Origin: Escherichia phage FL23
Direction: 5' to 3' (one strand)
Length of the DNA stretch: 64,000 bases
Sequence record: PP400787
Made by a program: the position numbers and the translations under genes. The stretch's first letter is position 1. Every line of letters starts with the position of its first letter. The notes beneath the pieces were generated by a model. It saw only the letters and a list, made by a program, of their open reading frames with translations, did not search any database and had not been told where the DNA came from. Shown here in pieces: positions 44,749 through 57,428 of this stretch.

Positions 44749-45575
44749 TGGCTATTTTTCAAATAATTAATGAAAGCACTCCCCAAGTTCCAAAGGTTAA
44801 GCAATCATTAAACGAAAAGAAATGGATTCAGATAGGTCTTGAATATAAAAAGGCCAAAGCAAAAGGAATGACAGGAAAGCAATTTGCTGAAGAAAGAGGA
44901 ATCAAATACTCTACGTTTACTTCAGCAATGTCAAAATATGCTTCAGGAATTAAAACGGCTGAAAAGATTCAAAAGCTTGAATCAAAACCAATGAATAAAC
45001 TCAATAAGCAAGAAAGACAACTGCTTATGATAAATTCATTCAGACAAACATTGCGCGATAAAATTCGTAATGAAGGTGCAGCAATTAATAATAAAACCAG
45101 AAAATGGTTTGCTGAAACTATTAAGCAAGTAAAAGGACATAAAGTTGTTCGCCCGCAACCGGGACGAATATATGCTTTTGCTTATGACGCTAAACACAAG
45201 GAAACTCTTCCTTACTGGGATAAATTTCCTTTGATAATTTACCTTGGCTTAGGTAAGCATAACTTAATGTACGGATTAAACTTGCACTATATTCCACCTA
45301 AAGCTCGTCAGCAATTCCTAGAAGAGCTTTTAAAGCAATATGCAAATACACCTACTATTACTAATAAAACGAAATTAAAAATTGATTGGAGTCAAGTGAA
45401 AGGATTTAGGGGTGCAGACCAAATGATTAAGGCATATATACCTGGTAATATTATGGGTAGCCTTGTTGAAATCGCCCCGAAAGACTGGGCGAACGTTGTG
45501 TTAATGCCACTCCAAAGCTTCTACTCAAAAGGAAAACGTTTCTCTGCAAACAAAGTTTGGAGCAATGTACGATGA
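44748..45575 (+). CDS. 2: DNA end protector protein (gp2-like)
   Basis: 275-aa ORF; size close to T4 gp2; TAATG coupling to gene 4. Confidence 0.75.
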
Positions 45576-46230
45576 ATTATGAAAAAATTTATAATTCACT
45601 AATTGATAGGGCTCGCAATAGAGCCCTTACTGGATATAAAGAAAGACATCATATTATTCCGAAATGTTTAGGCGGTAGTAATGATGCTTCTAACTTGGTT
45701 GATTTAACTCCAGAAGAGCATTATGTTGCACATCAGCTATTAGTAAAAATCACCCAAATTCTTTAAAATTATCTTATGCAGCCATAAAAATGACGGTTTC
45801 AACTAAATATGTTAGGAGAAATAATAAAGTTTATGGTTGGTTAAAAAGAAAACATGCAAATAATATTTCAAATACACAAACTGGACGAAAATATTATAAT
45901 AATGGTAAAAGATGTATAAAATTGCATGATGGAGATATAATTCCTGAGGGATTTATTTTAGGAAGAGGATGGAGTCCGACACAAGGAACAACTCATTCTA
46001 GAAAAAATGACACATTTAAAAACAAAAAGCTTCAATCTGCTTTAGCTAATAAACGGTGGGAAAAAGAAAAGAAAATAATGTTAGATAACTTTGGAGTTAA
46101 CACTATTGATGAAGCAAAGAAAATTGTTCTTGATTTTAAATCAACTTGTCATCTAAGATATTGGCGAAAGCCAACTTTAGAAAAATTTCCATTTATGACT
46201 TCTGCTCGTTTAAGAAGTCTAATAAATTAA
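45572..46230 (+). pseudogene. HNH homing endonuclease, reading frame interrupted at an A5 run (HNH segment 45572-45766; DNA-binding segment continues to 46230)
   Basis: HNH motif ERHHIIPKCLGGSNDASNLVDLTPEEHYVAH in frame 2 stops at 45764-45766; frame 1 is open from 45703 and reads ...NHPNSLKLSYAAIKMTVSTKYV...NGKRCIKLHDGDIIPEGFILGR (Seg-like DNA-binding tail); one extra A at 45745-45749 would fuse them into about 219 aa. Confidence 0.6.
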
Positions 46231-46916: not shown

Positions 46917-47641
46917 ATGAAACTAATCTTTTTAAGCGGTGTAAAGCGTAGTGGAAAAGATACTACTGCTGATTTTATCATGAGCAATTATTCTGCAGTT
47001 AAATACCAACTTGCTGGTCCTATTAAGGATGCATTGGCTTATGCATGGGGAGTATTTGCAGCAAATACCGACTATCCTTGCTTAACTCGTAAAGAGTTTG
47101 AAGGAATTGACTATGATCGTGAGACTAATTTAAATCTAACTAAATTAGAAGTAATCACGATTATGGAACAAGCATTTTGCTATCTTAATGGTAAAAGCCC
47201 AATTAAAGGTGTGTTTGTTTTTGATGACGAAGGACAAGAATCAGTTAATTCCGTAGCATTTAACAAGATTATTGACGTTATAAATAATATTGAAGATCAA
47301 TGGTCAGTCCGTCGTCTGATGCAAGCCCTAGGTACGGATTTGATTGTTAATAACTTCGACCGCATGTACTGGGTAAAATTATTTGCTTTAGATTATCTTG
47401 ATAAATTTAACTCAGGTTATGATTATTATATCGTTCCTGATACTCGTCAAGATCATGAAATGGATGCGGCTAGGGCGATGGGTGCTACAGTAATTCATGT
47501 AGTTCGTCCTGGTCAAAAATCCAATGATACACATATTACAGAAGCTGGATTGCCAATTCGTGATGGCGATTTAGTAATTACAAACGATGGTTCTCTTGAA
47601 GAACTTTTTTCTAAAATTAAAAATACACTAAAGGTACTATA

Positions 47642-47642: not shown

Positions 47643-48339
<697 letters not shown>

Positions 48340-48340
48340 T

Positions 48341-48390
48341 TTCACAAAGTTGTTTACATACTGATGAGGTAGTGATACTATTACCTCATC
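48341..48390 (+). promoter_or_regulatory. Early promoter with embedded stem-loop (PeSL-like) upstream of the 85-aa CTS gene
   Basis: tttcacaaagtTGTTTACA, 17-nt spacer, TACTAT (48376-48381); 9-bp inverted repeat gatgaggta/tacctcatc (48363-48371 / 48382-48390) around the -10. Confidence 0.65.
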
Positions 48391-48412
48391 AAAATTAATT
48401 AGGAAAATAAAA

Positions 48413-48670
48413 ATGAAAACTTTCAAAGAGTTTGCTACAAAAACTACTATCACTGAATCTTCCCACGGTATGGAAGTAAAGCTTGGAATGGCTTTAGCTG
48501 AAGCTGAGCGTCTTTTCTCTCGTATTAAAGAACTTGCTGCTGCGGTCGATCCTTCATCTTTTAAAGGAGACCAAACTAAAGTTAAAGCACTTTTAGCATT
48601 ATGCTCCGATGCAGGAGAAATTGCTAAAAATGGCTCTAAGATGAAGAAACGATTAGAAGATTTAAAATAA
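48413..48670 (+). CDS. Internal-protein-like capsid-targeted protein (CTS MKTFKEFATK...)
   Basis: 85-aa ORF with N-terminal CTS-like motif; paralogous to ORF 56353-56634 (shared EIAKNGSxMKxRLE). Confidence 0.6.
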   Translation: MKTFKEFATKTTITESSHGMEVKLGMALAEAERLFSRIKELAAAVDPSSFKGDQTKVKALLALCSDAGEIAKNGSKMKKRLEDLK

Positions 48671-48720
48671 TTTCACAAAGTTGTTTACATAGGGTTTTAG
48701 TTGTGATACTATTACCCTAT
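48671..48720 (+). promoter_or_regulatory. Early promoter with embedded stem-loop (PeSL-like)
   Basis: tttcacaaagtTGTTTACA, spacer, TACTAT (48707-48712); inverted repeat atagggt/accctat (48689-48695 / 48714-48720). Confidence 0.65.
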
Positions 48721-48746
48721 CAAAACAAAACCAAATGGAAATCAAA

Positions 48747-48980
48747 ATGAAAACTTACCAAGAATTTATTGCTGAAACTGCTGATGTAAAAGTTGAGTTT
48801 ATTTACACTGGCAAGAAAGATAAAATGGGTGAAATGCCTCATGGAGTTCTTCGTGATGCATTAGATAATTTCGGTCAACTCGCCGCAGAAGATTACGGTG
48901 ATAAAATTGTTGTTACTGGTCCTGCTGCAGTTATTGAAAAATGGGCAGCAGAAAATAAATCAATTTTTCGTAAAAAATAA
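48747..48980 (+). CDS. Internal-protein-like capsid-targeted protein (CTS MKTYQEFIAE...)
   Basis: 77 aa from the second in-frame ATG (48747), which gives the canonical MKTYQEFIAE start; position after 57B corresponds to the ipI locus. Confidence 0.6.
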   Translation: MKTYQEFIAETADVKVEFIYTGKKDKMGEMPHGVLRDALDNFGQLAAEDYGDKIVVTGPAAVIEKWAAENKSIFRKK

Positions 48981-49020
48981 GTTTACTTTTAGATAGGGTA
49001 GTGATACTATTACCCTATCT
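48981..49020 (+). promoter_or_regulatory. Early promoter with embedded stem-loop (PeSL-like)
   Basis: GTTTACT, spacer, TACTAT (49005-49010); perfect 10-bp inverted repeat agatagggta/taccctatct (48991-49000 / 49011-49020). Confidence 0.65.
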
Positions 49021-49038
49021 ACTACTGAGGAGAATAAA

Positions 49039-49224
49039 ATGAAACGTTGTGAATTAATTCGAAATGTTGCTATTGCAATTTCTGCTTCCGCTTTTAGTTT
49101 TTCAATGTTTGTTGGATTTATATGTGGATTATTGACTACAGCAGAAAATGTGTTTTCACTTGTAGTAGCATTTTTAATTGGTTTAATTGCTATTGTTATG
49201 GATAAAATTTCTAAAGGTGAATAA
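49039..49224 (+). CDS. Small hydrophobic membrane protein (61 aa)
   Basis: ATG with SD gaggag; two predicted TM segments. Confidence 0.5.
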   Translation: MKRCELIRNVAIAISASAFSFSMFVGFICGLLTTAENVFSLVVAFLIGLIAIVMDKISKGE

Positions 49225-49622
49225 TGAACGTTGAATATTATGTATATGCGGATTACGAAAATAATCCGTCTAAAGATGAAGATAATCGTTTAGGTGTAGA
49301 TGCTTTCGATTCCCCTGCGGCGGCATGGCAATGGGTTGAAAGAACCGATATTCCTTACCGTTATATTGAAGTGGTTGACCACGCAGGAAACAAGTATCCT
49401 AAGGAAGCATATGTTGCTTCCGGGAAGGTAAATTTCCTTTTGTTTGCAGGTGATAATTATTATCCCCGTGGTGGGTATACCGATTTAATTGCTAAAGCAT
49501 TCTCTGAAGATGAACTCCGTGACATTATCAAAGAAAATGAAAACAAACCGATGGATTCTAATCGCTTTGATTGGTGGCAAATCGTAAATGCTAATACTCA
49601 CACTATTGTTGATGAAGGCTGA
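49224..49622 (+). CDS. Hypothetical protein (132 aa)
   Basis: ORF with ATGA coupling to upstream gene. Confidence 0.5.
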   Translation: MNVEYYVYADYENNPSKDEDNRLGVDAFDSPAAAWQWVERTDIPYRYIEVVDHAGNKYPKEAYVASGKVNFLLFAGDNYYPRGGYTDLIAKAFSEDELRDIIKENENKPMDSNRFDWWQIVNANTHTIVDEG

Positions 49623-51367: not shown

Positions 51368-51711
51368 GACAAGAAGCCGGGTCGCTACCGGCAAGTCGTC
51401 GGACTGATGTTCCCTGTTTAAGGACTGGCATTAACAAATCTTTACGATCTGCTAATGCCCCCTTATATCACAGCAGAAACGGCGCACCGAATTATCGATT
51501 CGAGGAAATATCTTTGCCATAAGCCGAGTAGCGTTTTTGACGGAACGTTCGGATATGGTCGAGATATGGCCTTTTAAAAATATTGAGTAGCGTCAACTGC
51601 TTAATAACCGGGTTCGAATCCCGGCGTTTCGTACAAACACTTGCCTTAGCAGGTGGAACCCCGACAAGGTTGCCGCAAGGCTTAGCCCCGACCGAAAGGT
51701 TGGGGCTTTTT
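51368..51711 (+). ncRNA. Small stable RNA region downstream of tRNA-Arg (T4 species-1/species-2-like), includes a tRNA-like element and the operon terminator
   Basis: GC-rich structured sequence without credible coding potential; acceptor-like stem cggaacg/cgtttcg with canonical T-arm ccgggttcgaatcccgg (51541-51632); terminator ccccgacc-gaaa-ggttgggg + T-run (51685-51711). Confidence 0.45.
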
Positions 51712-51801
51712 AGTTTGAATCACTCGGATAACGCTGTTACGGATAGTAACAAAGTAATAAATAATTAATAACCAACCGATAAATTATTTCAAGGATTTTA
51801 A

Positions 51802-52365
51802 ATGAAAACCTATGCCGAATTTTTAACCGAAGCAGCAAAATTACCATCTGAAGCAGATCTTACTAAAGTATTCTTCCAATTGGACCCAAAAGACCGCGGC
51901 GATTTTCTTAAGTGGAAAGCTAAAGCTATTGAAATGTACAACATCGATAATAGTTCTTTTACAATGAGTCAAGAAAATAAATTCAATAAAGCATTTTTCA
52001 AAATTTCTAAGAAATTGGCATCTGGCGCTCAGGTTCCTAAATCTGTGTTAGCTACTCCTGAACGCGCACCTGTTAAAATTTCTAAGAATATGTTCGACAC
52101 TAAAAAATACGTTAATGCTTTGAATAAAGCTCTTGATGCATTGGATGATGCAAAGAAGGCAGCCCGCGATCTTCAAGACGTGTACACCGATTTTGACCGC
52201 AAAACTAAAGGTTCTATTTCAAATAGCGAACGCAATAGTGTAAGTGTTTATTCTGATAGCCTTGATGTTCTTGGCGATGCGTATACTGAAATTAAAAATC
52301 GTATTAACACTGCATCTAAGCTAAAAGCTGCTGCAGAAGCTATAATAAGTAAACTAGGTAAATAA
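51802..52365 (+). CDS. Internal-protein-like capsid-targeted protein (CTS MKTYAEFLTE...; IPIII-like size)
   Basis: 187-aa ORF with SD aagga and N-terminal CTS-like motif. Confidence 0.6.
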   Translation: MKTYAEFLTEAAKLPSEADLTKVFFQLDPKDRGDFLKWKAKAIEMYNIDNSSFTMSQENKFNKAFFKISKKLASGAQVPKSVLATPERAPVKISKNMFDTKKYVNALNKALDALDDAKKAARDLQDVYTDFDRKTKGSISNSERNSVSVYSDSLDVLGDAYTEIKNRINTASKLKAAAEAIISKLGK

Positions 52366-52373
52366 TTTTAAAT

Positions 52374-52398
52374 CCCTATCTAAATGATAGGGCTTTTT
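52374..52398 (+). terminator. Intrinsic terminator downstream of the 187-aa CTS gene
   Basis: ccctatc-taaat-gataggg hairpin followed by CTTTTT. Confidence 0.6.
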
Positions 52399-55831: not shown

Positions 55832-56634
<803 letters not shown>

Positions 56635-56801: not shown

Positions 56802-56987
56802 ATGAAAATGTATCAAGAATTTATCGTTGAAGCAGATGCCAAAGGTCCTAAATTTAAAGTTAAAGCTTTCATTGGTGATGCGGAAGACTTTGGCTCATTA
56901 AAACGTAATGGGTATTCTTTCTTAGGTGGCGATGGTAAAGAAATCAAAACACCTATGCAAAACGTAGTGAAATTGCTTATGTTGTAG
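56802..56987 (+). CDS. Internal-protein-like capsid-targeted protein (CTS MKMYQEFIVE...), possibly truncated by frameshift
   Basis: 61-aa ORF with SD aagga; a second open frame 56939-57064 continues with protein-like sequence. Confidence 0.5.
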   Translation: MKMYQEFIVEADAKGPKFKVKAFIGDAEDFGSLKRNGYSFLGGDGKEIKTPMQNVVKLLML

Positions 56988-57125: not shown

Positions 57126-57428
57126 ATGAAAACGTATAAAGAATTTATTACTGAAGCGCGAGTGAGTGCAGGTAAATTATATGCCGCTATAAATAAAAAG
57201 GCCCATTCATTTCATGATTTGTCCGATAAAGACCGTAAGAAACTTGTAAGCCTTTATATTGACAAAGAGCGTATTCTCGCTCTTCCTGGCGCTAATGAAG
57301 GTAAACAGGCAAAGCCTTTGAATGCTGTTGAAAAGAAAATTGATAACTTTGCTTCTAAATTCGGTATGTCTATGGATGACCTTCAGCAAGCGGCTATCGA
57401 AGCAGCTAAAGTAATTAAAGGTAAATAA
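57126..57428 (+). CDS. Internal-protein-like capsid-targeted protein (CTS MKTYKEFITE...; IPII-like size)
   Basis: 100-aa ORF with SD aagga and CTS-like N-terminus. Confidence 0.6.
   Translation: MKTYKEFITEARVSAGKLYAAINKKAHSFHDLSDKDRKKLVSLYIDKERILALPGANEGKQAKPLNAVEKKIDNFASKFGMSMDDLQQAAIEAAKVIKGK

Follow-up and report, generated by a model that had tools for sequence, protein, structure and literature searches.

Two internal-protein cassettes at the T6-type IP locus of Escherichia phage FL23 and the relation of Ip6 to McrBC restriction

Introduction

In the genome of Escherichia phage FL23 (PP400787), the short interval between genes 57B and trna.4 (48341-49020) holds two small open reading frames (ORFs) on the plus strand, ORF1 (48413-48670) and ORF2 (48747-48980), with a promoter/hairpin element ahead of each. 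What these genes encode, whether their products reach the host together with the phage DNA, and how the elements around them bear on the variability of the interval are the questions that this locus raises. They matter because phage internal proteins (IPs) are the first line of counter-defense: these proteins are in the cell before phage genes are read, and each one characterized to date disarms a different type IV restriction enzyme.

Here, a stretch of 64,000 nt of the FL23 genome (one strand; hereafter, the window) was analyzed. T-even phages (Tequatrovirus) are polymorphic at the ipI locus, and the ip5-ip6 arrangement is its allele of the T6 type. We consider it highly probable that the interval carries two ip cassettes, each consisting of a promoter element and an ORF with a capsid-targeting sequence (CTS), that both products are packaged and injected, that Ip6 acts against McrBC, and that the elements provide the homology for cassette exchange. 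The finding is a rediscovery, as the genes, the architecture of the locus, and the link between Ip6 and McrBC are already known.

Results and Discussion

ORF1 and ORF2 are ip5 and ip6, and Ip6 is tied to McrBC

The two products were compared with the internal proteins of T-even phages. ORF1, whose 85-aa translation opens with MKTFKEFATK, was identical to T6 Ip5 over its full length (85/85), and this exact sequence bears the UniRef name "Ip5 ... Q38630_BPT6" (UniProt Q38630). ORF2 matched T6 Ip6 at 76 of 77 positions, the sole substitution being conservative (V62 here, I in T6). The same names are found in other records, with Ip5 named in RB3, RB14, and RB51 and both ip5 and ip6 named in JK08. 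In PHROGs, ORF1 was labeled "internal head protein" (phrog_3499, E 1e-49) and ORF2 "internal virion protein" (phrog_8111, E 1e-52). Read at its longest, ORF2 opens four codons earlier, at 48735 (MEIKMKTYQEF...). The T6, JK08, and Bas37 records instead begin the gene at 48747 (77 aa, MKTYQEFIAE), a start that shares a GGA-N8-ATG geometry with ip5.

In the record of phage Bas37 (KarlGJung, MZ501089), the 234-nt gene bas37_0260 comes right after bas37_0261. By translation, bas37_0260 equals ORF2 in 77 of 77 residues and bas37_0261 equals ORF1 in 85 of 85, and the surrounding 3.2 kb is 98.6% identical. Thus, Bas37_0260 and Ip6 are the same protein at the same locus with the same neighbor, ip5, although the authors of the preprint on HIDEN-SEQ did not name it Ip6. 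As reported there, bas37_0260 sits "at the same locus as" T4 ipI, and its disruption caused a strong fitness defect on K-12 strain BW25113 and none on a strain without McrA, McrBC, and Mrr (10.1101/2025.11.20.689424). The knockout becomes specifically McrBC sensitive, and Bas37 carries a T6-type beta-alpha-glucosyltransferase (10.1101/2025.11.20.689424).

Since ORF2 is identical to bas37_0260, a role against McrBC has already been assigned to Ip6 by genetics. What others have shown, by genetics and not by biochemistry, is that escape from the type IV restriction enzyme McrBC of E. coli K-12 requires Ip6 (Bas37_0260). The initial annotation had described both ORFs as uncharacterized candidates for injected anti-defense effectors. 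The anti-defense role is indeed the accepted expectation, but the genes had already been named Ip5 and Ip6, and for ORF2 the claim of novelty fails outright, given its 100% identity to a protein whose deletion confers McrBC sensitivity.

Ip6 may inhibit McrBC directly. In T6-type phages, hydroxymethylcytosine is incompletely glucosylated, and the unglucosylated base is a substrate of McrBC. It is thus plausible that inhibition of McrBC by Ip6 would help T6-type phages, in which part of the hydroxymethylcytosine is unglucosylated.

The mature Ip6 body was present in 230 phage records and was at least 95% identical in 178 of them. All relatives returned by a word-indexed search of 5.8 billion proteins were at least 78% identical, and an exhaustive profile search with the Ip6 alignment added two further, distant, full-length homologues (P0047 and P0048). 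Both begin with MKTYQEF; therefore, the Ip6 body and its tag travel together. This is of value for annotation: ip5 and ip6 are still "hypothetical" in many deposited genomes, and in the about 180 records with at least 95% identity, Ip6 can now be given the McrBC-related function.

Several points weigh against the favored reading as a whole. The McrBC result is a knockout phenotype from a preprint. Mature Ip6 is not basic (isoelectric point [pI], 6.5), unlike the classical internal proteins. In the literature searched, neither virion proteomics nor injection data came up for Ip5 or Ip6. No TATAAATA late promoter was found directly upstream of ip5 or ip6, the nearest one on the plus strand being at 47279, inside gene 1. 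For the hairpins, covariation was weak, with 76% of cells paired across 22 distinct elements versus 74.7% in shuffles. Compensatory changes were limited to 2-3 pairs, and 3 pairs had changed on both sides. When ip4-10 of other T-even phages were challenged with 15 GmrSD groups, no reproducible inhibition was obtained (PMC12373910), so there is no demonstrated anti-defense activity for Ip5. Finally, the text of the HIDEN-SEQ preprint mentions no phenotype for bas37_0261, that is, Ip5 (10.1101/2025.11.20.689424).

Predicted capsid targeting and the timing of synthesis

The CTS-like N termini that had been noticed at 48413-48670 and 48747-48980 were confirmed by their match to T4 IPI, IPII, and IPIII. 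Residues 1-10 of ORF2 (MKTYQEFIAE) are those of T4 IPII and IPIII, and residues 1-7 of ORF1 (MKTFKEF) are those of T4 IPI, with an ITE motif following at residues 13-15. T4 IPI itself begins with MKTFKEFTSTTTPVSTITE and is cut after ITE19, before A. As reviewed by the Black laboratory (PMC9026906), the first 10 residues of IPIII are enough for incorporation into the head, targeting is governed by residues 4 and 7 and processing by residues 8 and 10, and the protease gp21 cleaves after L/I-x-E. The key CTS residues (Y/F at position 4, F at 7, I at 8, and E at 10) were present, and both ORFs carry a CTS resembling MKTYQEFIAE.

An L/I-x-E motif also ends a propeptide of 10-19 residues in both proteins, as IAE10 followed by T in Ip6 and ITE15 followed by S in Ip5; this describes the motif and not cleavage itself. 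The predicted gp21 cut after E10 would give a mature Ip6* of 67 aa (7.4 kDa, pI 6.5), for which a near-neutral, ferredoxin-like alpha/beta protein is predicted. In Ip5, the predicted cut after E15 would remove the propeptide MKTFKEFATKTTITE and leave a basic Ip5* of 70 aa (7.5 kDa, pI 9.2, 13 K+R).

From this likeness to T4 IPI-III, we infer cleavage, packaging, and injection of Ip5 and Ip6. The precursors would bind the scaffolding core of the prohead, and the prohead protease gp21 would trim them to mature proteins of about 7.4-7.5 kDa. These would be stored in the head and injected with the DNA and would hence be in the cell before any phage gene expression.

With no late promoter adjacent to the genes, protein made during prohead assembly must come from early mRNA that persists or from read-through. 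Read-through RNA, which carries the hairpins, is the probable source of the protein with which proheads are loaded late in infection. The ribosome-binding regions of ip5 (TAGGAAAA, 48396-48412) and ip6 (ATGGAAAT, 48730-48746) are without GGAG, and the trna.4 leader (49023-49038) has GAGGAG. GGAG is the target of the T4 endoribonuclease RegB, which inactivates early mRNAs. Because their ribosome-binding regions are without GGAG, the ip messages might, speculatively, escape RegB and stay translatable late, when proheads are loaded.

The same promoter arrangement could be read in another way, namely that Ip5 and Ip6 act after de novo early synthesis and not after injection, with the 5' codons kept mainly as recombination homology and not as a functional CTS. 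A strong early promoter indeed stands before each gene, with no late promoter adjacent, and the first ~35 nt of ip5 lies within the block common to T4 ipI (homology to 48447). However, the residues that experiments have linked to targeting (4 and 7) and processing (8 and 10) are conserved in the proteins even between IPs with unrelated bodies and differing nucleotide sequences. Moreover, McrBC would hit the incoming DNA before phage genes are expressed, and action after injection is known for T4 IPI*. We therefore regard action after de novo synthesis as very improbable and retain packaging and injection as the favored reading.

Three promoter/hairpin elements delimit the cassettes

With a repeat finder, one family of 71-nt repeats was found, with copies at 48324-48394, 48655-48725 (86% identity to the first copy), and 48953-49023 (63%). 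The initial annotation had assigned to each ORF its own near-identical early promoter with an inverted repeat. Both the elements and their hairpins are real, but there are three elements, not two, the third standing before trna.4.

Element 1 (P_ip5; 48324-48394, plus strand) has the same sequence as the element in front of T4 ipI. It has a -35 box GTTTAC (48352-48357), an extended -10 box TGaTACTAT (48373-48381), and inverted-repeat arms at 48362-48371 and 48382-48391 (folding free energy [dG], -17.4 kcal/mol; z, -5.4). Element 2 (P_ip6; 48655-48725, plus strand) takes in the last ip5 codons (D-L-K-stop), and its left half is 96.6% identical to the T4 element preceding trna.4. The -35 box lies at 48683-48688, the -10 box TACTAT lies at 48707-48712, and the hairpin is imperfect, with ATAGGGT/ACCCTAT plus an inner stem (dG, -16.5 kcal/mol; z, -4.6). 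Element 3 (P_trna.4; 48953-49023, plus strand) forms the right boundary of the cassette array, with a -35 box at 48981-48986, a -10 box at 49005-49010, and a perfect 11-nt inverted repeat at 48990-49000 and 49011-49021 (dG, -18.5 kcal/mol; z, -4.7).

The pattern GTTTAC-N15-19-TGATACTAT occurred 5 times in the window versus 0.01 times expected, and all three elements carry the form GTTTAC-N15-TGATACTAT. Exact occurrences of the core GTGATACTATTACC in the window were confined to the three element sites. The early-promoter consensus of T4/PST has been given as TTTACW-N17-TAYWAT (Comeau 2014, PMC4122927). Of the features of promoter-early stem-loop (PeSL) elements, a promoter, a Shine-Dalgarno sequence, a start codon, and flanking variable ORFs were found here, with TTTACA-17-TACTAT at 48353 and 48684 and GTTTACT...TACTAT at 48981. 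Each cassette thus combines a conserved element of ~70 nt, whose T4 early promoter is of the sigma-70 type (GTTTACA-N17-TACTAT, extended by TG), with a short leader, in which the Shine-Dalgarno sequence is weak, and an ORF with a CTS in its first 10-15 codons.

As single strands, the elements fold into hairpins of 13-14 bp around the -10 box (dG, -16.5 to -18.5 kcal/mol; z, -4.6 to -5.4), and none of 200 shuffles was as stable. No such hairpin was seen at three other early-type promoters of the window (56636, 63735, and 52523). Two arm types occur, related by compensatory changes (GAGG/CCTC versus AGGG/CCCT). A role of the hairpins as terminators was rejected, as no U-tract follows the stems and a terminator scan did not flag them. 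A protein-binding palindrome was considered unlikely because the copies have different arm sequences and yet remain self-complementary; the covariation statistics are too weak to settle the point.

The inverted repeat around the -10 box might instead be an element of the transcript, such as a 3' stabilizer, a processing site, or a weak attenuator for read-through RNA, and be neither a recombination structure nor a promoter part. In support, the hairpins are strong and confined to these three promoters, and compensatory changes separate the two arm types. Transcripts from the elements themselves would start inside the right arm; therefore, the full hairpin would be present in read-through RNA only, from 57B or from upstream cassettes. 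PeSLs have also been described as composite terminator/promoters (PMC4122927). Against this stand the missing U-tract and terminator-scan signal, the weak covariation statistics, the lack of any family match in an Rfam scan of the elements, and the persistence of chimeric elements with broken hairpins in RB3, SF3, and EP01. On balance, a transcript-level role is a possibility that we hold to be doubtful, and the elements are treated below as homology for cassette exchange.

More than 100 records of T4-like phages of Klebsiella and Raoultella (e.g., JD18 and Mineola) matched the query over 48998-49070 only (73 nt, 93% identity). This stretch comprises the promoter core, the right arm, the leader, and the first trna.4 codons, and its flanks were not detectably similar by megablast. 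The promoter element thus seems to be kept, or exchanged, beyond the genus.

Proposed gain, loss, and exchange of cassettes between 57B and trna.4

The interval between 57B and trna.4 was compared in T4, T6, RB3, teqdroes, P922, EP01, slur13, and Pu-Krd-SF3, and the count for RB51 was also included. No cassette was present in slur13, one was present in T4 (ipI) and RB51 (ip5), and four were present in EP01. Two were present in T6 and in the window (ip5 and ip6), RB3 (ip5 and ipI), teqdroes (ipI and an ip6 variant), P922 (ipI and ip7), and SF3 (two others). The view of this locus as a hypervariable T-even site equivalent to that of T4 ipI is borne out by these counts of 0, 1, 2, or 4 cassettes. 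The location is that of one of the two polymorphic IP loci (between 57B and trna.4, or downstream of e), with the genes at the position of T4 ipI and T6 ip5/ip6. Every ORF within the compared intervals opens with MKT[YF][QK][EK]F and has a promoter/hairpin element ahead of it.

In the window, the ip5 cassette lies between 33-nt exact direct repeats (48328-48360 and 48659-48691), which take in the last codons of the upstream gene; therefore, 57B and Ip5 both end in D-L-K. The final 57B codons (D-L-K-stop) accordingly fall within element 1, where the 33-nt repeat begins at 48328. The ip6 cassette lies between 19-nt exact direct repeats of the core (48703-48721 and 49001-49019). Homology between T4 and the window (98%) ends at 48447, inside the CTS-coding region, and restarts precisely with the first base of the core, at 49001. 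The one T4 element downstream of ipI corresponds to the left half of P_ip6 of the window joined to the right half of P_trna.4.

Chimeric elements, with arms of different types that pair poorly, were found as RB3_884 (-10.1 kcal/mol), EP01_1250 (-6.2), and SF3_892 (-1.9). Such chimeras are what recombination within the core would yield, and at the sequence level they support the shuffling model for the IP locus. In this model, the repeated promoter elements and the shared CTS codons would act as portable homology for the gain, loss, and exchange of cassettes among coinfecting T-even phages, and the crossovers map to the invariant core GTGATACTATTACC. Repoila et al. 1994 (EMBO J 13:4181) are credited by Comeau et al. 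2014 (PMC4122927) and by Silas et al. 2025 with the discovery of some ten CTS-bearing IP genes and with the notion that IPs are shuffled between related phages; the conserved leader of these genes is likewise attributed to that work. The model of IP-locus shuffling was later generalized as PeSL elements (PMC4122927).

The function of Ip5

For Ip5, the AlphaFold2 model showed two long helices (a helical hairpin) with a pLDDT of 69 (moderate confidence), and none of its structure matches was informative. The mature Ip5 body was present in 494 phage records and was at least 90% identical in 268. In the word-indexed search, all relatives were at least 81% identical; a paralogue in the window (56353-56634) was missed by that search. 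This paralogue of 93 aa lies just downstream of the lysozyme gene e, at the second IP locus, with a predicted cut before S, and is 48% identical to Ip5 (E 1e-24; both PHROG 3499). Of the phage records, 226 match Ip5 at less than 60% identity only (e.g., RB69ORF127c) and may be of the type of this paralogue.

Ip5 could be a generic, basic, DNA-associated protein that fills or assembles the head, through charge neutralization or assembly of the prohead core, as proposed for part of the role of T4 IPIII. The basic mature form (pI 9.2, 13 K+R in 70 aa) and the simple predicted two-helix hairpin would suit this role, and no target emerged from the GmrSD panel or was reported from HIDEN-SEQ. T4 IPIII mutants have head-assembly defects (PMC9026906), and a second copy of the family at 56353-56634 is consistent with a bulk role. 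However, the locus is dispensable, as slur13 has no cassette and T4 has ipI instead, and presence, absence, and swapping of genes in this manner typify an arms race. Inhibition of type IV restriction proved to be what each of the three T4 IPs and, by knockout genetics, Ip6 does, and paralogues diverged to 48% identity suit target diversification better than a bulk function. A generic head role for Ip5 is thus unlikely, and Ip5 most likely inhibits another DNA-directed defense.

A further proposal, to which we give an equally low probability, has two separate parts. In one, the Ip5 family (48413-48670 and 56353-56634) would be an injected inhibitor of a defense other than GmrSD, McrBC, McrA, and Mrr, one to which no internal protein has yet been tied. 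In the other, the hairpin would be a structure-specific exchange site folded like the attC of integrons, which would make the T-even IP locus a phage "integron" for injected effectors. The targets of Ip5 and its paralogue matter if the host range of Tequatrovirus phages used in therapy is to be predicted, and the advance would be incremental within the known framework.

Genome setting and further CTS-bearing ORFs

The window is part of a T4-like (Tequatrovirus) genome, with gp2, a homing endonuclease, gp3, gp1 (dNMP kinase), 57A, 57B, ip5, ip6, trna.4, trna.3, trna.2, a tRNA cluster, and segB in this order on the plus strand. The IP locus is flanked by two conserved genes on the same strand. 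On its left, 57B (47881-48339) encodes the anti-CBASS protein Acb1 (Pfam PF23474, E 2.7e-60) and is named 57B in the T4 and T6 annotation; on its right, trna.4 (49039-49224; T4 and T6 annotation, PHROG 1692) encodes a hydrophobic protein of 61 aa. In a nucleotide comparison of 48300-49260 (961 bases), Elenatom, MLP2, and FL44 were 100% identical, and the remaining 27 records among the matches listed were 99.8-99.9% identical; 89 records in all reached at least 99%.

With acb1 (57B) directly adjoining the IP cassettes (47881-49224), two to three unrelated counter-defense genes stand together under early promoters. Elsewhere in the window, the homing-endonuclease gene between gp2 and gp3 (45557-46230) is broken into ORFs of 69 aa and 146 aa. 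Phage Elenatom has the gene intact (219 aa); compared with it, 1 nt is deleted near 45750, which causes the break. The split gene is either a pseudogene or a sequencing error.

The window holds six CTS-bearing ORFs in all. A 187-aa ORF at 51802-52365 opens with a CTS-like MKTYAEFLTE, followed by A, and has an L-x-E motif. Between the last tRNA and e.8, it lies in a segment of ~660 bp (51714-52374) that neither T4 nor T6 has, with a G+C-rich, terminator-like hairpin upstream (51684-51707) and another after it (52374-52392). The named members of its cluster are all labeled "hypothetical protein" (e.g., RB14ORF136) or bear an evidently spurious dioxygenase label. Pfam and NCBIfam searches gave no match for it, and its PHROG (2280) has no function assigned there. 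This ORF is probably an internal protein not annotated as such. A 61-aa ORF at 56802-56987 (MKMYQEFIVE...) matches only the first ~45 of the 101 positions of the internal-head-protein profile phrog_2667 and may be truncated. The ORF at 57126-57428 (100 aa) is a close homologue of T4 IPII, and no homologue of T4 IPIII was seen in the window.

Comparison with known systems

Searches of Pfam and NCBIfam with Ip5 and Ip6 gave nothing above threshold, and a sequence search of the Protein Data Bank (PDB) returned noise only, with no match to IPI* or others. Compared with T4 IPI*, IPII, and IPIII, the genes of the window have in common the ipI locus, the ipI promoter element, and the CTS, whereas the mature bodies of Ip5 and Ip6 are unrelated in sequence to the T4 proteins. 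As reported previously, T4 Ip1, Ip2, and Ip3 each block a different GmrSD type IV restriction enzyme (PMC12373910). In contrast, Ip6 is required against McrBC, which belongs to another enzyme family than GmrSD, the target of the T4 IPs.

The elements of the window resemble PeSL elements (Arbiol 2010; Comeau 2014, PMC4122927) in combining an early promoter, a stem-loop, and a Shine-Dalgarno sequence with a start codon, in being flanked by variable ORFs, and in the proposed excision, insertion, and exchange of cassettes. The elements are a positional variant: published PeSLs have their stem-loop immediately upstream of the promoter, whereas in the window the spacer and the -10 hexamer are enclosed by the stem, with GTGATACTAT in the loop. 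With respect to T6 Ip5/Ip6 (also of T2, RB3, RB14, RB51, and RB70), the locus has the same gene order, 57B-ip5-ip6-trna.4-trna.3-trna.2-tRNAs, and the single Ip6 substitution is the only difference.

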